A stretch of 64,000 bases of DNA, taken from contig JACRFK010000003.1 of the NCBI GenBank assembly GCA_016217925.1, positions 207,656 through 271,655 on the forward strand, written 5' to 3'. The notes below the pieces were generated by a model. It worked only from the letters and a program-made list of their open reading frames with translations. It had not been told where the DNA came from and made no database searches. Shown here in pieces: positions 2,056 to 62,719 of the stretch. The position numbers were made by a program, and so were the translations under genes. The stretch comes from Candidatus Kaiserbacteria bacterium. GTDB lineage: Bacteria > Patescibacteriota > Minisyncoccia > Phycocordibacterales > UBA2100. How positions within the stretch are numbered: position 1 is the first letter of the stretch; every line of letters starts with the position of its first letter.

Positions 2056-2748
2056 CTATGTGCTATCGAGCGAGTCTAGAGAGCCTGGCTTCCCAGTCAC
2101 ATCCCATGTCTCGACCCATCGCAAGTATGCTAGTCGCACGATGAGGCGTTTGTGCGTCCGCACTTTGATATGCTGTATCCTTAACGTCTTGTAGATATCG
2201 TTGAAGTTTCTATTTACTGTCAAGGGCTCAGTTTCCATCTCTGCGGCTATTTGCCTGGCCGTTTCGTATCCCATGCGGAGATGCATCAGCGTGGCTCGTT
2301 TTCGCGCAGGCAACGAGTTGACCCCTTCTGCCAACGCATCGAGGTTGAGTTTGTAGTAGCCGATAATGTCGGGCGGCACTTCAGGCCGGCCGCGGCCCGT
2401 TCCCCGAAGTTTGGCATTCTTTTTTGGGGATTGAGCATGCTGTGTAGCAGCAACCTGTGCGCTTGCGCGACACATTTCGGCGAACTTTTTGTACGAGCTG
2501 CCGATAGCTCGGAGCATCGCCTTTTCGCTACTCAGGCCGTAGAGGTTGAGTTTGCCGCACATACCGGTGAAAAGCTCGCGCGCGCTTTCCTTGTCCGTCC
2601 CGCGACGGACTTTGATCTGCAGCTGGGTATCTATTTTTGGTAGATCATTCCCGAGAGCGAGCTGCCTCGCGACGAACAGTTCGTCCTCGCTGAAGCGCAG
2701 AAAGGTACTGTAGACCTCTGCGTTCAACGGTTGATCGGTTGAGTTCAT
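2056..2748 (-). CDS. DNA-binding protein with C-terminal sigma-70 region-4-like HTH
   Basis: 230 aa ORF; LPARKRATLMHLRMGYETARQIAAEMETEPLTVNRNFNDIYKTL resembles sigma region 4. Confidence 0.4.
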   Translation of the reverse strand: MNSTDQPLNAEVYSTFLRFSEDELFVARQLALGNDLPKIDTQLQIKVRRGTDKESARELFTGMCGKLNLYGLSSEKAMLRAIGSSYKKFAEMCRASAQVAATQHAQSPKKNAKLRGTGRGRPEVPPDIIGYYKLNLDALAEGVNSLPARKRATLMHLRMGYETARQIAAEMETEPLTVNRNFNDIYKTLRIQHIKVRTHKRLIVRLAYLRWVETWDVTGKPGSLDSLDST

Positions 2749-2837
2749 GGATGTATCCCCGCTGTTTCGAGTTAAACTTCAAACCTTCGCGCCCTTTCTA
2801 GATTGTGAAAGAGCAGCTAACGGGCACCATAACCTTT

Positions 2838-3797
2838 TTACGAGTTTCCGCCAAGAATGAATTTTGCCTCATCTGCGGTATTCGTTTCCATAAGCTTCAC
2901 GCGCAATTCTTTGGCCCCGTCCCAGCCCGAAATATAAGCTTTGAAATGTTTCTTCATGGTGGCGTAGTTGACACTGTCTCCCAGCAATTCGTCGAAAAGT
3001 GTGAGGTGTTCGATGAGTGCGCTGATACGTTCCTGTGGCGCCGGCAATTCAGTGCGGTCCGAAAAAAGCCACGGATTTCCAAAGACGGCGCGGCCGAGCA
3101 TCACGCCGTCGCATTTCGTCTCCGCAGCTTTCGCGCGCGCGTCGTTCAAGTCTTTCACGTCGCCGTTCCCCGCGATGAGCGTTTTGGAGCCGAGCGAATC
3201 GCGGATGGCGACCGCGCGCGCGACGGCATCCCACCGTGCCGGCACATCCGACATCTCTTTGCGCGTGCGTGCGTGAAGTGTGACGAGCGCGGGTTCTTCG
3301 GCAAGCAGCTCCGACAGCCACGTATCGAGCTCGTCTTTGTTATAACCGATACGGGTTTTGACGGAAACGGGCAACCCGCTTTTCTTCGCCGCACGGATAA
3401 GCTCGCGCGCAAGGCTGGGATTCTTGATGAGCGCGGCACCACATCCACTTTTCTCTACCGCTTTGTCAGGGCATCCCATGTTGATATCGAAACCGTCAAA
3501 ACCAAGCTCGGCGCAGAGACGTGCCGCGGCTTCCATGCGTTCCGGCGACGAGGTGAAAAGCTGCGCCACGATAGGCCGTTCTGCCTCATCGTATAAAAGT
3601 TTCTTCAGGAGCTTGACCTTGCCGTCTTCCGGAGCGAGGATAAGACCGTCGGCCGAAGTAAACTCCGTGTACATCACGCGCGGGACGTCGGGCGAACTAT
3701 GTTGTGCGATAAGCCGCCGGAATGCTGCATCCGTCACATCCTCCATGGGTGCCTGGATAAAAAACGGTTTTGGTAGCGTGTGCCAAAAGTCTTCCAT
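2838..3797 (-). CDS. dus: tRNA-dihydrouridine synthase
   Basis: FIQAPMEDVTDAAFRRL, GFDGFDINMGCPDKAV, KTRIGYN motifs (Dus TIM barrel). Start taken at internal MEDFWH. Confidence 0.8.
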   Translation of the reverse strand: MEDFWHTLPKPFFIQAPMEDVTDAAFRRLIAQHSSPDVPRVMYTEFTSADGLILAPEDGKVKLLKKLLYDEAERPIVAQLFTSSPERMEAAARLCAELGFDGFDINMGCPDKAVEKSGCGAALIKNPSLARELIRAAKKSGLPVSVKTRIGYNKDELDTWLSELLAEEPALVTLHARTRKEMSDVPARWDAVARAVAIRDSLGSKTLIAGNGDVKDLNDARAKAAETKCDGVMLGRAVFGNPWLFSDRTELPAPQERISALIEHLTLFDELLGDSVNYATMKKHFKAYISGWDGAKELRVKLMETNTADEAKFILGGNS

Positions 3798-56216: not shown

Positions 56217-57224
56217 CTAATTGATTTCGATGTCGATATGCCGGATGCTCGGGTGGAGTTTCTTGATGCGCAATTCTATCTCGTCAATTTTCTTTCCCAT
56301 GAGGCGCGGAATGCGGTCGGCATAGTCCGCAAGAAAACGCTTGAACTCTCCGAAATCCCCCCGTACATCCTCGTACTGCTGTTCCATCGAGCGCCGTCTG
56401 TATACTTCCCGCAGGAGCGCGCCGCCGTTGAATTCCACCTCGCACTTGATGCGATACACGCCCCACCCGAGTGTCGTCGATTTAAAATCGACCACCTTCT
56501 CAATAGCCGGATCGGCTTCGAGTATCCCGACCACCTGTTCTTGCAGATCCTCGGGTATCGCGCGGCCGAGAAGATATATGCGATTTTTGAGGATAAGCGT
56601 AACCGCGGTGAAGGCGAGCAGAATGGAGATGAGAACGGAACCGAGGGCGTCCCAAACGGGATTTCCGGTCAAGTATGTGGCACCTATCGCGACTGCTGCA
56701 ATCGCGACACCCAAAACGGCGACCGCATCTTCGAGATACACCGCCAGGGTCATCGGGTCGGCAAGTTCCAGACGTTCCCGGAGCGCCGCTCCGGGATGAG
56801 CCGCGCGCAACGAGCGCGCGGCAACGCGAAACGTGTACAGCTCCACGAGGAACGCGAACAGCAACACCACAAAGACAATGACGCTAAACTCGACCTCCCC
56901 CGGATGAAGAAGCGAAGTCACTCCCTTGTAGCCGGTAATGCCCGCGCCGATAAAAAAGACGCCGACCGCCGAAAGCAGCGCCCAGAAGAAGCGTTCGCTG
57001 CCGTAGCCGTATTCAAATGTTTCGTCGGCTTTCTTGAGCGAGCGGCGAAGACCGATAAGAAGCAGGATTTGATTGAGCGTATCGGCGAAGCTGTGTACCG
57101 CTTCGGCAAACATCGAGGACGAGCCCGAAACAACGGCTGCACCAAATTTGCTTACGGTAACAACCGCGTTGCCCGCAATCGCCGCGACGACGGGCTGGAA
57201 TCCCGAAGTGTGTTGAAGTGCCAT
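56217..57224 (-). CDS. cation diffusion facilitator (CDF) family transporter
   Basis: About 336 aa from MALQHTSGF; HSFAD motif, 6 TM plus cytoplasmic domain. ORF upstream extension would overlap tRNA-Glu. Confidence 0.8.
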   Translation of the reverse strand: MALQHTSGFQPVVAAIAGNAVVTVSKFGAAVVSGSSSMFAEAVHSFADTLNQILLLIGLRRSLKKADETFEYGYGSERFFWALLSAVGVFFIGAGITGYKGVTSLLHPGEVEFSVIVFVVLLFAFLVELYTFRVAARSLRAAHPGAALRERLELADPMTLAVYLEDAVAVLGVAIAAVAIGATYLTGNPVWDALGSVLISILLAFTAVTLILKNRIYLLGRAIPEDLQEQVVGILEADPAIEKVVDFKSTTLGWGVYRIKCEVEFNGGALLREVYRRRSMEQQYEDVRGDFGEFKRFLADYADRIPRLMGKKIDEIELRIKKLHPSIRHIDIEIN

Positions 57225-57229
57225 ACTTG

Positions 57230-57301
57230 TGACCCTACCGGGAATCGAACCCGGGTTCCATGCTTGAAAAGCATGTGTCCTAACCGTTAGACGATAGGGC
57301 C
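57230..57301 (-). tRNA. tRNA-Glu (anticodon TTC)
   Basis: GGCCCTA..GTCT AACGGTTA GGAC..CATGC TTTTCAA GCATG..GGTTCGATTCC..TAGGGTC A. Confidence 0.75.
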
Positions 57302-57555
57302 GTGCGGTCAATACTATCAAAAAGATCCTTTCTTGCACGTGCAGTTTTCTTTAAGAAAAGTTCCCGCAAACGGGCTTCTTTTTTGTTCACGAACATTTGT
57401 ACGTATTCCAACTTCCAGGGGCGGTAACCTTTAGTCGAACGGACCTCTCCTGCATTGTGTTGGGATAGTCTTCTCGACGGATTGCTTGATATGCCGATGT
57501 AATGTCGTGGCAGCGCCGAGCTTTTCAGGATATAAAGGAAGTGGATATTTTCCAT
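57280..57555 (-). CDS. GIY-YIG nuclease family protein (UPF0213-like)
   Basis: MENIHFLYILKSSALPRHYIGISSNPSRRLSQHNAG...GYRPWKLEY; 3' end overlaps tRNA-Glu 5' end. The listed ORF start (57627) is TTG; ATG at 57555 is more likely. Confidence 0.65.
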   Translation of the reverse strand: MENIHFLYILKSSALPRHYIGISSNPSRRLSQHNAGEVRSTKGYRPWKLEYVQMFVNKKEARLRELFLKKTARARKDLFDSIDRTALSSNG

Positions 57556-57575
57556 AATATAAGGTATTTTAACCC

Positions 57576-57607
57576 GTCCTCCGGAGGAGGATCCGCCTCC
57601 GGCGGAA
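57576..57607. repeat. ~30-nt palindromic element, copy in GIY-YIG leader (canonical copy)
   Basis: CGTCCTCCGGAGGAGGATCCGCCTCCGGCGG; would encode SAGGGSSSGG only if the TTG-extended ORF were used. Confidence 0.7.
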
Positions 57608-57743
57608 AAGTGTGCTATTTTGTTCAAAGTCAGCTCGTTGCAACATTCACTCCGAATGTTGCTGGAGCGGCGCGAGGCGCCGCTCCGCCGGAGAAGCTGC
57701 TATCGCGGCTCTCTGAAGGGGCGAACCGCAAGGTTCGTCCAAA

Positions 57744-57828
57744 GGAGAGGTGGCTGAGTGGTCTAAAGCACCGGTTTCGAAAACCGGCATGGGGCAACCC
57801 ATCGAGAGTTCGAATCTCTCCCTCTCCG
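57744..57828 (+). tRNA. tRNA-Ser (anticodon CGA), type II
   Basis: GGAGAGG TGGCTGAGTGG...CCGGT TTCGAAA ACCGG, long variable arm, GAGTTCGAATCTC, CCTCTCC G. Confidence 0.8.
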
Positions 57829-57855
57829 CAATGAATGTTCAAGAGTCTCTGACGG

Positions 57856-57930
57856 CACTCCGGCGCGACAAACGCTTCGCGCCGCTCATCAAGAAGCATG
57901 GGATGCCGGAATTGAAGCGCGGGTCTTCGC
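57856..57930 (+). repeat. direct repeat: duplicated 5' end of alkA-like gene (23 codons), left boundary of an inserted segment
   Basis: Encodes LRRDKRFAPLIKKHGMPELKRG versus gene copy LRRDKRFAPLIRKHGMPELKRG at 58781..58850; about 88% nt identity; differences nearly all synonymous. Confidence 0.6.
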
Positions 57931-57946
57931 ACTCCTGAAAGCGAGG

Positions 57947-58723
57947 CTAACGAGAAGTTTTCTCTAGAATGCGTTCCTCAATGATTTTCGAAAAACTGTC
58001 CATAGCTTCTAGTATCTCAATCTGAAATTGCTCAACGGTCGGCTTCCGATCCATATCTTTTTGTTGTTCAAAAATCGAAGGTGTTCCAGCCCCCTCCCTT
58101 TCCATCGAGTCTAGTATCGCCTTCATAAAAGCAAGCCCGTCCGGTCCCGCACATCGTTTTCTCAATTCGCTAAGACGACTCTTGAGTACACTAAGCTGCT
58201 GGATGCTTCCCCGCTGGATCCCATAGCTTGCCTCCTCAGGCGAAAATCCGTGGTACCAGAATTCGTCGACAATATTAAAATCAAAAAGTATATGCCAACC
58301 CTCTCCTGAGCGTGTGTTGGCTCGGTAGTGTTCGTTGTCGGTGAAGATCTTATCCAGTATCCTCCGGTCAGCCCAAAGCTCGTCTTCACTATTCTCGCTC
58401 TTTTCTATGTACTCGGTTGGCAGTACGTACGAATAAAACTTTCCTGTTTCTTTCTTATAGACGACATCAGAAACGGGCATAGTGCCTTTGAGGAGGCGTG
58501 ATAGGAACATTTGATCTCGAGGAGAATATTCGATCTCATGAAATTTCCTTCCAACTGAGTCCTGAACAATATCTCTGCCTTTGCTGTTCTTGCCTATTAC
58601 TTCGAGATCCTTCACAGACTGCGGCACAACTGATGCCTGAGTAGGGTCATGCGATATGTCCGGCTTTGGCATCTCAATGCCCATTGATAGATTATAGCAA
58701 CCTTGAGCTTGCCCTTCTTTCAA
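57947..58723 (-). CDS. hypothetical protein, low-GC cargo of the tRNA-Ser/alkA insertion
   Basis: 258 aa; GC about 40%; no recognisable motifs; bounded by the 57856/58781 direct repeats. Confidence 0.5.
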   Translation of the reverse strand: MKEGQAQGCYNLSMGIEMPKPDISHDPTQASVVPQSVKDLEVIGKNSKGRDIVQDSVGRKFHEIEYSPRDQMFLSRLLKGTMPVSDVVYKKETGKFYSYVLPTEYIEKSENSEDELWADRRILDKIFTDNEHYRANTRSGEGWHILFDFNIVDEFWYHGFSPEEASYGIQRGSIQQLSVLKSRLSELRKRCAGPDGLAFMKAILDSMEREGAGTPSIFEQQKDMDRKPTVEQFQIEILEAMDSFSKIIEERILEKTSR

Positions 58724-58742
58724 GAACCCTTATGCTCCCCAC

Positions 58743-59405
58743 ATGAATAAAGAGGATGACTTCTCCAAATCCATTGCGATTCTAAGGCGTGACAAGCGCT
58801 TCGCGCCGCTTATCAGGAAGCATGGGATGCCGGAATTGAAGCGTGGAAGAAATCCTTTCCAAGCGCTTGTGCGCTCAATAATTCATCAGCAAGTTTCGGG
58901 CGCAGCGGCGCAGACGATACATGCCCGTTTTCTCGCGTTGTTTCCAAAAAAGAAGTTCCCCACTCCCGAAATGGTGCGGGAGATACCGCTTGAGAAAATG
59001 CGCGCGGCAGGACTTTCAGGCCAGAAGACTTCTTACATCAAAGACCTCGCGGAGAAATTCACGGACGGCACTGTCAGACATAAATCGCTTCACAAGATGG
59101 AAAGCGCGGACATCGTCGAACACCTCACGCAGGTCAAAGGCATCGGCGTGTGGACGGTGCACATGTTCCTCATCTTTACGCTGAATCGCAGGGATGTGCT
59201 CCCGACCGGCGATCTCGGCATACGTAAGGGATTCCAAACACTCTACAAACTGAAAAGTTTGCCAGACCACGCACAAATGGAGAAGCTCGCGCGCCCGTGG
59301 CGCCAGCATGCTTCGGCTGCATCGTGGTACCTCTGGCGTGTGGCGGACAGCGCAAAGCTCAAGCCTCAGGCCGTATCGCGTTCCACACGTCGGCGGCGGA
59401 AATAG
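58743..59405 (+). CDS. HhH-GPD base-excision DNA glycosylase (AlkA / 3-methyladenine glycosylase II-like)
   Basis: VKGIGVWTVHMFLIF, helix-hairpin-helix plus Gly/Pro-rich loop and catalytic Asp (LPTGDLGIRKG). Confidence 0.75.
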   Translation: MNKEDDFSKSIAILRRDKRFAPLIRKHGMPELKRGRNPFQALVRSIIHQQVSGAAAQTIHARFLALFPKKKFPTPEMVREIPLEKMRAAGLSGQKTSYIKDLAEKFTDGTVRHKSLHKMESADIVEHLTQVKGIGVWTVHMFLIFTLNRRDVLPTGDLGIRKGFQTLYKLKSLPDHAQMEKLARPWRQHASAASWYLWRVADSAKLKPQAVSRSTRRRRK

Positions 59406-60000
59406 CCCCTTCGCGCAAAATCACCGGCTGTACTCCCGAAAGGTCCACCACCGTGGAAGGCTGTCGCTCCGGCAACTCACCCGCATCTATCACAAGGCCA
59501 ATATCACGCGCACTGTCGCCGAGCTGCGCAAGGATCTTTTCAACGGAGCGCTCGGGCTGCGCGCCGCTCCTATTCGCGCTCGTCGCCGTAACGGGCATGC
59601 TGAACTCATCTATCAATGAGGTCAAAAATCCATCATCGGGTATACGGTAAGCAAAGGTGTTGATGTTTTTTAATATTCCCGTACTGAACTGAGGTCGCTT
59701 TGTTACAACAACCGTGAGTTTCCCTTTGGGCGATCTTCCTAGAAGTTTCCGCGCCAACACATTCTCTTCGCTGTAAAGTTCTGCCATTTCAACACAAGAG
59801 ACAAGAGCGTGTAACGGTTTCTTTTCGTCACGCCCTTTAATGGAGTAGATTTTCTCCACTGCATCATCTTCAACTGCCCACGCAAGCAACGCGTACTGAG
59901 TATCGGTCGGGCATAAAACCACCCCTGCTGCCCATAGGACCTCATACGCCCTATTGTTTGCGAGCTCGGTATTTTCTTTGGAAAATTTAATTACTTCCAT
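59359..60000 (-). CDS. tsaC: L-threonylcarbamoyladenylate synthase (YrdC/Sua5 family)
   Basis: PTDTQYALLA, KGRDEKKPL, PVTATSANRSGAQP; convergent 47-nt overlap with alkA-like 3' end. Confidence 0.8.
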   Translation of the reverse strand: MEVIKFSKENTELANNRAYEVLWAAGVVLCPTDTQYALLAWAVEDDAVEKIYSIKGRDEKKPLHALVSCVEMAELYSEENVLARKLLGRSPKGKLTVVVTKRPQFSTGILKNINTFAYRIPDDGFLTSLIDEFSMPVTATSANRSGAQPERSVEKILAQLGDSARDIGLVIDAGELPERQPSTVVDLSGVQPVILREGAISAADVWNAIRPEA

Positions 60001-60075
60001 TGGTGCGCGGTAAAGGGATCGAACCTTTGACCCTTGTCACGTCAAGACAATGCTCTACCACTGAGCTAACCGCGC
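60001..60075 (-). tRNA. tRNA-Val (anticodon GAC), CCA encoded
   Basis: GCGCGGT TAGCTCAGTGGTAGAGC..TTGTC TTGACGT GACAA..GGTTCGATCC..ACCGCGC ACCA. Confidence 0.8.
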
Positions 60076-60094
60076 AACGACGTCCAATATACCT

Positions 60095-60937
60095 TTAGAT
60101 GGAGGCTTTTTCAATCTTCCCTCCGCATCCCGACAAGAACGCATCGAACGCCGCCAGTAGCTCTTTAAGGGCTTGTGGCGGCTCGGAGAACGTATAACTG
60201 TCGACTGAACGAGTTGGAAGTATCTTTGCGGAAGTGCTCGTGAGAAAGGCTCCGTCGTACTGCGGCAAGTCTTCAGGTCGGATATCTTTTTGCACAATCT
60301 CAAAGCCGGTATCGGCCGCGACTTTCAGTACCGCCTTGCGCGTGACGCCCGGCAAAATGTTTTTCTCATTTGGCGAGAAGAGTGTCTTACCCTTTATGCA
60401 AAAGAAATTTGTGCGCGTCCCCTCCGTGATGCATCCCCCTCGGTCGATAAGCAACGCATCATATGCGCCGGCCTGTTTGGCTTTGCGGTAGGCGAGATAG
60501 CTTTGCAACATATTGAGTGTTTTTGCGTGGGGAAACGGACGCTCGTATTCGTAGGTCACGCATGCGACTCCGTCCCGGTATAATTTTTTGTCCGGAAAGA
60601 GGGGATTCAGGCAGAGAATATTGAGCTGCGCATCTTCCGCCGTCTTTCCCCCGATAAGAAGTATTTTCACGTTGCAGGTCGTAGCGCCGTTTTTCTCAAG
60701 AAGCTGCGCGACGGCGTCCGACACGCCCTCCGGTGTGTAGGGGTGCAAAAGTCCGATGATGCGCGCGGAATTCATCAGGCGCCCGATATGGTCGGCAAGA
60801 AAATAGACGATTCCGTTGCTTACTCGGACGCTCTCATAGACCCCGAAACCGTACGCGTACTCGATGCTCGAGAGCGGAATAACCGCATCAGTAACCGGAA
60901 GCAGTTCTCCATTCCGCGAAAAATACTTGAAATCCAT
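60095..60937 (-). CDS. class IV PLP aminotransferase (branched-chain / D-amino-acid aminotransferase family)
   Basis: 280 aa; fold-type IV pattern (YGFGVYESVRV, PGVTRKAVL, EAFLTSTSAKILPTRSVD). Confidence 0.7.
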   Translation of the reverse strand: MDFKYFSRNGELLPVTDAVIPLSSIEYAYGFGVYESVRVSNGIVYFLADHIGRLMNSARIIGLLHPYTPEGVSDAVAQLLEKNGATTCNVKILLIGGKTAEDAQLNILCLNPLFPDKKLYRDGVACVTYEYERPFPHAKTLNMLQSYLAYRKAKQAGAYDALLIDRGGCITEGTRTNFFCIKGKTLFSPNEKNILPGVTRKAVLKVAADTGFEIVQKDIRPEDLPQYDGAFLTSTSAKILPTRSVDSYTFSEPPQALKELLAAFDAFLSGCGGKIEKASI

Positions 60938-60940
60938 AAG

Positions 60941-62719
60941 TTATTGGTCCTGAAGGAATCCTCCGGCTTGGTGGGCCCAGAGTTGGGAATAAATCCCGCT
61001 CCCGGCGACAAGCTGCTCGTGTGTGCCCTCTTCGACGATTTTGCCGCTATCCAAGACGATGATGCGGTCCATCTCGCGCAAAGTCGAGAGGCGATGGGCG
61101 ATGGCGATGACCGTCTTCCCTTTCATCAATTCGCGAAGTGCCTTCTGTATCTCCACCTCGCTTTCGCTGTCGAGCGCGGAGGTCGCCTCATCGAGCAGAA
61201 GTATCGGCGCATTTTTCAGTATCGCACGGGCAATCGCTATGCGCTGGCGCTCGCCGCCCGAGAGCTTGATGCCGCGCTCGCCCACCATCGCGCCATAGCC
61301 GGTCGGGAGATTCACGATGAAATCGTGGGCCTGTGCGAGCTTCGCCGCCTCGATGATCTCTCCTTCAGAGGCACCCGGATTCCCGTACGCGATATTCTCG
61401 CGGATGGTGCGGTGAAAAAGGAGTGGCTCTTGCGGCACGACCGAGATAGCGTTGCGGAGGCTCTCCTGCGTCACGCTTGCGATATCGGTGCCGTCGATGG
61501 TAATCGTCCCCGCGCTCAGATTGTGGTGGCGCAAAATGAGCCGTACGAGCGTGGATTTCCCGGCACCCGAACGGCCTACGACGCCGACCCTCTGTCCCGG
61601 AGGAACGACAAGCGTCATGTCATTAAATACGACATTTTCCCCATACGAGAAGCTCACCCCGTTGAACGCGAGCGCCCCGCCGCTTATCGCGAGTACCGAC
61701 GCATTTGGCTCATCGGGGATCTCGTGCGGCGCGATGATTTCCTCAAGGCTCTCGCTTATCTCGCCCCACGTCTCGGCAAATTTATTGAAATTCGAGCCGA
61801 GCGACTGCAAGAGACCCTCGATCCTGAAAATGATCGTGATGACCAAAATGATGTCGCCGAAAGAGAGTATGCCCGCGCGCGAGAACGATACCGTCGTAAA
61901 GACCATGGCGGTCCCGAACACGACCAAGAGAACGCTGTTGAGTACCCGCGTCCACTCGCCGAAATACCAGCTCGCGATATGCGCCCGCCGGCGGTCATCC
62001 GTTGCTCCTTTCAGTCGCTCGATCTCAAATTCACGGCGCGCGTATTCCTGCATCGCGCTCACGTTGGTGAGGAGGTCGACCGTGGCACCGTTCAGCGTTG
62101 TCTCCAGATTGTGTGCGCGCGCCGAGAGCGGTACGCGCCGGTACCCGAGGTATATGTTGATGAGCAAGATTGCGAAAACCCATGCGAGGAACATCCACGC
62201 GATGGGCGGACTCACGAGAAACACAATGATGAAGCTCGTGACCGCATTCACGCCGAGCTCCAGGAATTCCCACAAAAAGACGTCGACGACCTCGCGCATG
62301 CCGGTCGCCGCGTGCCGTATCTTGTTCATGATAGAGCCCGCAAAACGGTCCGAAAAATAAGTACGGCTGTGGAGCGTGACGTATGAAGTGAGCGCGTAAC
62401 GTGCGGTCGCCGAGGCGCCCGTCGCCCAGCGCGCGCCCATGAATCCCGATATGCGCCAAAAGAGTTTTGCGAGAGCAAGCACGAGTATCGTCGCGCCCGA
62501 AGCCATATACAGCAAGTCGTACGAACCGCCTTGTACGAGCGCGACCACCGCATCCGTCACCAATTTGAACACATAGGCGACGCTTGCGGAAAAAGCATTG
62601 CCCGCCGCGGCGAGGAGTATCGCAAGGACGGCGGCCCGCCAGTGCGGCTGTGAGGCAAAAAGGAAGAACCGGAGGGGGTTCTTCGTCATGGGGAGGTCGT
62701 CGCGCCAGATAGAGGTCAT
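60941..62719 (-). CDS. ABC transporter, fused permease/ATP-binding (exporter, MsbA-like)
   Basis: 592 aa; 6 TM plus NBD: Walker A GRSGAGKST, signature LSGGERQR, Walker B ILLLDEATSALD. Confidence 0.85.
   Translation of the reverse strand: MTSIWRDDLPMTKNPLRFFLFASQPHWRAAVLAILLAAAGNAFSASVAYVFKLVTDAVVALVQGGSYDLLYMASGATILVLALAKLFWRISGFMGARWATGASATARYALTSYVTLHSRTYFSDRFAGSIMNKIRHAATGMREVVDVFLWEFLELGVNAVTSFIIVFLVSPPIAWMFLAWVFAILLINIYLGYRRVPLSARAHNLETTLNGATVDLLTNVSAMQEYARREFEIERLKGATDDRRRAHIASWYFGEWTRVLNSVLLVVFGTAMVFTTVSFSRAGILSFGDIILVITIIFRIEGLLQSLGSNFNKFAETWGEISESLEEIIAPHEIPDEPNASVLAISGGALAFNGVSFSYGENVVFNDMTLVVPPGQRVGVVGRSGAGKSTLVRLILRHHNLSAGTITIDGTDIASVTQESLRNAISVVPQEPLLFHRTIRENIAYGNPGASEGEIIEAAKLAQAHDFIVNLPTGYGAMVGERGIKLSGGERQRIAIARAILKNAPILLLDEATSALDSESEVEIQKALRELMKGKTVIAIAHRLSTLREMDRIIVLDSGKIVEEGTHEQLVAGSGIYSQLWAHQAGGFLQDQ

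Follow-up and report, generated by a model that had tools for sequence, protein, structure and literature searches.

A probable scar of integrase-independent, homology-driven gene gain at a hypervariable islet between tRNA-Ser and a DNA glycosylase gene in Kaiserbacteria

The locus between tRNA-Ser and the glycosylase gene

This study concerns a 64,000-nucleotide (nt) stretch of a Candidatus Kaiserbacteria genome (GenBank assembly GCA_016217925.1, contig JACRFK010000003.1, positions 207,656 to 271,655 of the forward strand), hereafter the window, and in particular the interval that separates a tRNA-Ser gene from a DNA glycosylase gene. Two divergent tRNA genes, tRNA-Glu(UUC) at 57229–57301 on the minus strand and tRNA-Ser(CGA) at 57744–57829 on the plus strand, are followed by the stranded 5′ end of a glycosylase gene, a single minus-strand gene that we call the cargo, and the full-length glycosylase gene itself. 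Both tRNAs were identified by ARAGORN, in agreement with the tRNA-Ser(CGA) placed here by an initial annotation of this DNA. The full-length gene (58743–59405, plus strand) encodes a mosaic HhH-GPD (AlkA-like) DNA glycosylase of 220 amino acids (aa), whose HhH-GPD domain (PF00730, Pfam E = 3.3e-18) spans residues 43–187 and for which more than 7,800 homologues were found.

The start of this gene occurs twice. A repeat search returned a direct repeat at an offset of 924 nt (57862–57922 against 58786–58846; 61 nt, 92% identity), and about 5e-18 such repeats would be expected by chance in 64 kb. Set in codon register, the two copies extend over 57858–57923 and 58782–58847 on the plus strand and are identical at 58 of 66 nt (87.9%), close to the 88% first reported, and they encode the peptides LRRDKRFAPLIKKHGMPELKRG on the left and LRRDKRFAPLIRKHGMPELKRG on the right. 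The repeat had been described as the first 23 codons of the gene; it corresponds instead to codons 10–31 of the left copy and codons 14–35 of the full gene. At the protein level the similarity of the left copy reaches back to an ATG at 57831, 1 nt after the tRNA, which opens a 35-codon reading frame at 57831–57938 on the plus strand (MNVQESLTALRRDKRFAPLIKKHGMPELKRGSSHS, then a stop codon). This frame consists of 31 codons homologous to the glycosylase, MNVQESLTALRRDKRFAPLIKKHGMPELKRG, followed by SSHS and the stop.

The differences between the copies are informative about their history. Seven of the eight are synonymous (the earlier count was six of seven), with a proportion of synonymous differences (pS) of 0.46, a proportion of non-synonymous differences (pN) of 0.02 and a binomial P of 2e-4. 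Such an excess indicates that the copies diverged as functional alleles in separate lineages, and not through the decay of a local duplication. The repeat is also mosaic in itself, with six differences in its first 35 nt and then 27 identical nt (57893–57919 in the left copy, 58817–58843 in the right), after which two mismatches follow (CGC GGG against CGT GGA). This 27-nt core encodes MPEL, which among the alleles listed is found only in the two window copies, and the closest of 40 other alleles differs from it at at least 4 of the 27 positions. In one register the inserted segment occupies 57920–58843 (924 nt; 57893–58816 is equivalent), and its removal in silico leaves an intact 216-aa glycosylase gene abutting tRNA-Ser. 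The left junction and spacer lie at 57920–57946, where a 27-nt sequence beginning with CGGGTC, GTCTTCGCACTCCTGAAAGCGAGGC, adjoins the stop codon of the cargo gene; a blastn search with 57915–57950 gave no homologue among the fetched loci described below.

The cargo is the only gene between the repeats, as initially proposed, and no integrase accompanies it. Its length needs revision. The open reading frame on the minus strand reaches a TTG at 58723 (258 aa, the length first given), and the most likely start, judged by that of its homologues, is the ATG at 58684, so that the gene would span 57947–58684 and encode 245 aa. Its GC content, first estimated at about 40%, measures 45.6% (47% at third codon positions), which falls at the 0.6th percentile of the 777-nt windows in the 64-kb stretch (mean 55.2%); the gene is indeed low in GC against its surroundings, and it is also a rare gene. 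No second copy or paralogue of the cargo gene is present in the window.

The cargo protein had been said to contain no recognisable domain, and scans of Pfam, NCBIfam, PHROGs and PADLOC bear this out. A profile search of 1.84 billion representative proteins recovered 222 related clusters (50% identity) of proteins of about 250 aa. When 82 members of the family were compared as a profile with PDB sequences, nothing fell below E = 0.3, and a Pfam scan of all 82 returned scattered chance matches only. At the level of predicted structure the statement does not hold. An AlphaFold2 model built from the 82-sequence alignment reached a predicted local distance difference test score (pLDDT) of 94.9 and a predicted template modelling score of 0.91, whereas a 3-sequence alignment had yielded an unusable model (pLDDT 54.6). 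The predicted structure has the two lobes of a kinase fold, and its best Foldseek matches are all kinases, though weak. The family shares the motif F-x-D-x-D-H ... N ... (F/Y)-D-F, in which all 82 members have N123 and D135 and nearly all have D116 and D118, the window protein having E118; a conserved strand-3 lysine was not identified. We therefore predict with confidence an atypical protein-kinase-like fold in an unannotated family, whose window member is most likely a putative small-molecule or protein kinase, or a pseudokinase. From the known atypical kinases (Fam20, CotH, CtkA, MavQ, actin-fragmin kinase, HipA) it differs in that its sequence has no detectable match in Pfam, NCBIfam or PDB, and the locus thus brings to light a family of predicted atypical kinases that had escaped annotation. 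The family is not tied to the tRNA-Ser/glycosylase site, since one full-length homologue (P0002) has unrelated neighbours, ndk on one side and a DUF2238 gene on the other. A distant family member (hmmsearch E = 6.5e-29) stands directly downstream of the glycosylase gene in a further Patescibacteria genome (L010, 2641–3486, minus strand), an adjacency that could be due to chance or to a loose functional link between the glycosylase and the kinase-like family.

Empty sites, recurrence and the mosaic breakpoint

For comparison, 160 glycosylase loci were fetched, together with eight contigs from an exact protein look-up (loci are numbered with the prefix L). The divergent tRNA-Glu(UUC)/tRNA-Ser(CGA) pair beside the glycosylase gene is conserved in the relatives of the window and occurs in both orientations, the inverted one being found in L100, L111 and L168. 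Empty sites, which the initial annotation had named as the alleles to look for, do exist. In L083, L089, L090 and L092, a short-type glycosylase gene (MDVKDSLMVLKRDKRF...) begins exactly 1 nt after tRNA-Ser, and in L097 and L006 the gene begins 2 nt after tRNA-Glu. All of these empty sites were seen in other lineages only. The best nucleotide matches of the left remnant are the tRNA-Ser-adjacent short-type alleles (L092, L094, L083), at 80–82% identity over 90–92 nt. The remnant matches alleles of this position, and with the insert excised an intact 216-aa gene results; the left copy therefore is the gene's original start, still in place.

An insertion of this kind has happened more than once. 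A motif scan for a second copy of the glycosylase 5′ end, covering L001–L162 and the window, found one outside the window only in L084. There, a short-type remnant (MQKSVDALKRDKRFAPLIKKHGRPDLVRGKNPFSAL...) is followed by genes for a 461-aa ABC1 kinase and a 133-aa protein, both on the minus strand, and then by a full gene with another N-terminus; L086 is the corresponding empty site. The L084 junction lies at codon ~36, about 5 codons deeper into the gene than the junction at codon ~31 in the window, its cargo is unrelated to that of the window, and the two inserts have no end sequences in common. The larger of the L084 cargo genes (2169–3554, minus strand) encodes an ABC1/UbiB atypical kinase (E = 2e-43), so that both independent insertions carry kinase-fold genes, which may be coincidence.

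More widely, relatives differ in what they carry between the tRNA pair and the glycosylase gene. At least 11 gene contents were distinguished there, including none at all, a family of ~110-aa proteins, DUF2127, cytidine deaminase (GC 40%), ornithine carbamoyltransferase, membrane proteins, and a NUDIX protein with an oxidoreductase. In L094, which is collinear with the window, a segment of 802 nt (2979–3780, GC 40%) with a cytidine/deoxycytidylate deaminase gene separates tRNA-Ser from an intact short-type glycosylase start, and no repeat flanks it. Flanked by conserved anchors, the interval is a hot spot of recombination and not the target of one dedicated element.

Close relatives of the cargo protein, at about 90% aa identity, form a single group on eight contigs from several samples (L001, L111, L163–L165, L167, L168 and the window's own L166). 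Those foreign contigs that reach the cargo 3′ flank have the order tRNA-Ser (minus), tRNA-Glu (plus), 17 nt, cargo (minus) and a long-type glycosylase gene (plus), which we refer to as the L111 type. In five such contigs with the cargo 17 nt from tRNA-Glu, neither the left remnant nor the left repeat is present. The window glycosylase gene was ranked against 26 alleles in windows of 90 nt. Over codons 1 to ~20 its closest relatives are the cargo-bearing L163 and L164, of the L111 type, at 83%, the next best allele reaching 72%. From codon 21 onward (codons 21–70), the L111 type drops to ranks 11–17 of 26, and L003, L105 and L094 are closest at 84–91%. The right flank, with a Sua5-class gene, tRNA-Val, an aminotransferase gene and an ABC transporter, likewise follows L100, L003 and L009 and not the L111 type. 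The identity profile against L111 alone has no sharp step, and the breakpoint is visible only in the ranking against the 26 alleles. The proposal that an insertion into the glycosylase 5′ end supplied a replacement start is thus borne out, since the cargo and codons 1 to ~20 are related to L111-type loci and later codons are not.

We also considered a joint transfer of the cargo and the entire glycosylase gene, given that homology to L164 ends at the gene end. It was rejected because Sua5 is only 44–57% identical in every relative, so that the loss of L164 homology past the gene reflects fast Sua5 evolution.

Homology-driven gene gain and competing explanations

These comparisons are best explained, with a probability that we put at roughly 0.6, if the locus is the scar of a gene gain that was driven by homology, needed no integrase and took place at a hypervariable islet. 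A cargo gene, an intergenic region and some 20–25 donor codons entering a tRNA-Ser/glycosylase backbone would account for the remnant, the duplication and the breakpoint by one event. The resident genome would have begun with tRNA-Ser, 1 nt, and a short-type glycosylase gene, the arrangement that comparison with the empty sites reveals. A foreign allelic segment of about 0.9 kb would then have recombined into the front of this gene, coming from a related Kaiserbacteria lineage in which the kinase-like gene stands divergently upstream of the glycosylase gene. It would have brought the kinase-like gene, the intergenic region with a promoter-like site, and codons 1 to 20–25 of the donor's long-type glycosylase. 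The two ends of the segment are shown by the sequence. On the right there was a homologous exchange, presumably RecA-dependent, in the conserved stretch encoding RDKRFAPLI(K/R)KHG, with the crossover in RDKRFAPLIKKHG and the switch from donor to resident sequence between ~58790 and 58817. On the left a non-homologous joint follows resident codon ~31, so that 27 nt of resident sequence were duplicated and the old start was left behind as a 35-codon remnant. The glycosylase has stayed intact and is now probably expressed from a promoter in the insert instead of by co-transcription with the tRNA. A candidate for this promoter, found by a consensus scan, is the sequence TTGGCA-16 nt-TAGATT with an extended TG (58666–58693, plus strand), which lies within the insert about 50 nt upstream of the new glycosylase ATG.

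Two routes to such a product may be imagined. One is a single crossover in which the incoming fragment had become circular; the other is one-ended homology-facilitated illegitimate recombination (HFIR), possibly with a short conversion tract thereafter. In E. coli, duplication of part of the homologous locus marks the single-crossover integration of a circular molecule with a truncated gene copy, whereas true HFIR gives a deletion (PMC3240628). By that standard the window, where the homologous segment is duplicated over 66 nt with 27 nt identical, carries the single-crossover signature (PMC3240628). A one-ended event that joined 27 nt downstream of the crossover explains the 27-nt identity directly. 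The sole hint of microhomology at the left joint is the GGGTC that it has in common with the tRNA-Glu 3′ end beside the cargo of L111-type loci.

Both routes have precedents. HFIR and single-crossover events in Acinetobacter, S. pneumoniae, P. stutzeri and E. coli resemble the event in the window in that one end is anchored by homology and non-homologous cargo is carried in (PMC3240628, PMC5361080); those were laboratory events with engineered substrates, whereas the window presents a natural case between Kaiserbacteria lineages, with about 66 nt of 88%-identical homology. HFIR-type anchoring has also been proposed for effector displacement at type VI secretion system (T6SS) and Rhs loci (PMC5361080). 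In the C-terminal displacement that creates orphan arrays at Rhs, contact-dependent inhibition (CDI) and T6SS loci, an incoming module with a piece of the conserved gene recombines and the old tip persists as a repeat-bearing remnant (PMC5361080). The case in the window is the mirror image of that process, an 'N-terminal displacement' in which the 5′ tip of a DNA-repair gene was displaced upstream, with a single remnant and no toxin–immunity pair. With tRNA-flanked islands and islets the locus has in common a variable interval between tRNA genes and a conserved core gene, filled by many alternative contents; it departs from them in that a protein-coding 5′ end, and not a tRNA 3′ end, is duplicated, and in having no integrase.

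Several points tell against this explanation of the locus as a homology-driven gain. A single crossover alone leaves the 27-nt identity unexplained and needs either an identical donor or a crossover-associated conversion. The clustering of the repeat differences, taken alone, is not significant (P = 0.08), and the mismatches just past the core (CGC GGG against CGT GGA) make the exact junction uncertain by about 4 nt. As the glycosylase gene is highly conserved and mosaic in all relatives, the sequence that is informative for the breakpoint amounts to about 100 nt. Finally, the actual donor was not found among nine cluster members and eight cargo-bearing contigs inspected, none of which has the 27-nt spacer of the window.

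The main rival, to which we give a much smaller though appreciable chance, reverses the polarity of the event. The cargo and a long-type glycosylase gene would have been resident, as in L168, and the incoming DNA would have comprised tRNA-Glu, a small GIY-YIG nuclease gene between the tRNAs, tRNA-Ser and 31 short-type codons, anchored by homology in the CDF gene beyond tRNA-Glu and joined illegitimately beside the cargo; a homing endonuclease may have made a double-strand break beforehand. In L168, a CDF start 93% identical to that of the window is followed by an oppositely oriented tRNA pair and then the cargo, and L100 (CDF 94%, tRNA-Ser region 96%) also has the opposite orientation. Endonuclease genes do occur between the tRNAs, GIY-YIG in the window and L013 and LAGLIDADG in L168, and T4 SegB, a GIY-YIG enzyme from a tRNA cluster, drives co-inheritance of flanking DNA (PMC2330249). 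The start of the left joint, CGGGTC, moreover resembles the tRNA-Glu 3′ end, AGGGTCA, which abuts the cargo in every L111-type locus; with 5 nt shared (GGGTC), this is a lead only. We rate this explanation lower because it requires an extra event for codons 21 onward and the right flank, neither of which is L111-like. The 27-nt identity would call for a conversion event as well. Identity to L168 reaches only 86.5% in the cargo patch but 93% at the CDF start, and the GIY-YIG protein is short (~91–115 aa) and lacks an evident DNA-binding domain.

The initial annotation had favoured site-specific integration of a non-autonomous or decayed element that brought a substitute start. On such a view, a recombinase encoded elsewhere would have placed a small circular element at an attachment (att) site in the glycosylase 5′ end. 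We now regard this as unlikely. The direct repeats with their 27-nt identical core around a single low-GC gene, and the restoration of the target gene by element-borne sequence, are what such an element would leave, and tRNA-Ser appears to serve as an att site in a relative, L111, where a perfect 21-nt repeat of the tRNA-Ser 3′ end accompanies a transposase-bearing island. There is a precedent as well. SXT, described by Hochhut and Waldor in 1999, reportedly supplies a new promoter and 5′ coding sequence to the conserved gene prfC, which remains functional, its old 5′ end being left upstream. The outcome in the window resembles that of the SXT/R391 elements, which insert in the 5′ end of prfC (PMC2791158), in combining insertion into the 5′ end of a core gene with a substitute start. 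SXT is about 100 kb long and uses the tyrosine recombinase Int on near-identical attP and attB, whereas the window insert has 0.9 kb, one kinase-like gene and no recombinase. With neither an integrase nor a fixed att site, the insert is not a member of the SXT/R391 family.

Other observations also oppose site-specific integration. No recombinase lies between the repeats, where the sole gene is kinase-like, or among the neighbours (GIY-YIG, CDF, glycosylase, Sua5), the rest of the genome not having been searched. The repeats are 66 nt of coding homology between diverged alleles and not a short att core, and the position is not fixed, given that L084 has its junction at another codon and shares no cargo end sequences with the window. 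In five L111-type contigs 17 nt separate the cargo from tRNA-Glu and the left repeat is missing, and the same interval holds many unrelated genes. Nor does the window contain a tRNA-derived att repeat: a second tRNA-Ser 3′ end was not found in it within 3 mismatches, just as it contains no second cargo. Taken together, these observations indicate recombination at a hypervariable locus.

It is very improbable that the arrangement is an artefact or a local event: the window does come from a metagenome-assembled genome, and assembly breaks in relatives cluster in the glycosylase gene (L001 and L111 end inside it), but Logan contig L166 (run SRR12113407) is 100% identical to window 57801–62405 across the left junction, albeit perhaps assembled from the same reads; the junction sequence is unique, and a chimeric join of two strains at a shared k-mer would not yield a duplication with a novel 27-nt spacer; and a local tandem duplication followed by divergence is excluded, since pS is 0.46 while pN is 0.02 and the N-termini are of two types.

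If the locus is the scar of a homology-driven gain, it would offer a natural example, complete with empty site, donor-type relative and mapped breakpoint, of how ultra-small genomes of the candidate phyla radiation (CPR) may take up accessory genes with no need for the machinery of mobile elements. By homologous recombination across conserved coding sequence, the genome would have imported a neighbouring gene and given a core repair gene a new start and probably a new promoter. In Kaiserbacteria, the comparisons single out the stretch between the tRNA-Glu/tRNA-Ser pair and the glycosylase gene as a hot spot of recombination. The locus would be a variant of the recombination-driven turnover already known from islets; it represents no new kind of mobile element and does not overturn current understanding. 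A more far-reaching idea, which we consider improbable, is that the cargo and the glycosylase 5′ end belong to a class of small integrase-free 'homology-handle' cassettes in Patescibacteria, which would carry codons 1 to 20–35 of a conserved housekeeping gene together with its promoter, insert repeatedly at that gene in different genomes by way of host recombination and keep it functional, with GIY-YIG or LAGLIDADG genes of the nearby tRNA spacer as a conceivable source of the initiating breaks.

The tRNA pair and neighbouring elements

The tRNA pair itself varies among relatives. Comparison of window 57226–57830 with L100 214–611 and the reverse complement of L168 150–1161 shows that the divergent tRNA-Glu/tRNA-Ser pair acts as a flippable module, with inversion endpoints exactly at the two tRNA 3′ ends and with CDF starts that are 93–94% identical between orientations. 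In both orientations a tRNA 3′ end lies 4–5 nt from the CDF start codon (57223–57229 in the window). The two tRNAs are 442 nt apart in the window and about 232 nt apart in L083. Where the site is empty, the glycosylase ATG lies 1–2 nt, and the CDF ATG 4–5 nt, past a tRNA 3′ end, too close for a promoter or a ribosome-binding site to fit in between; judging from this spacing, the glycosylase and CDF genes there are probably co-transcribed with the tRNAs and translated from leaderless mRNAs after tRNA 3′ processing.

A comparison of L167 with L111 suggests that a further recent recombination breakpoint lies between the two tRNAs. Their segments of tRNA-Glu, cargo and glycosylase start are 99.2% identical, their tRNA-Ser regions 88%, and the flanks farther to the left are unrelated. 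In L111, the perfect 21-nt direct repeat of the tRNA-Ser 3′ end (2635–2655 and 2774–2794, 139 nt apart) stands beside genes for a GDSL lipase, a truncated acyltransferase and an rve-family transposase (517–2613), and the region looks like the remnant of a classical tRNA-targeted island.

The GIY-YIG nuclease gene of the window (57280–57627, minus strand; Pfam E = 5e-16, GC 45.7%) occupies the tRNA spacer and has 22 nt in common with tRNA-Glu. Among the fetched loci, a homologue between the two tRNAs is found only in L013 (63% aa identity), with weaker matches elsewhere in L085 and L153. The gene may encode a free-standing homing endonuclease like T4 SegB (PMC2330249), although the short protein lacks an evident DNA-binding domain. 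In L168, a relative with the CDF backbone and the cargo of the window, the tRNAs enclose instead a gene for a 267-aa LAGLIDADG_3 endonuclease (1115–1918 in locus coordinates, E = 3e-14), a second type of homing-endonuclease gene at the tRNA spacer.

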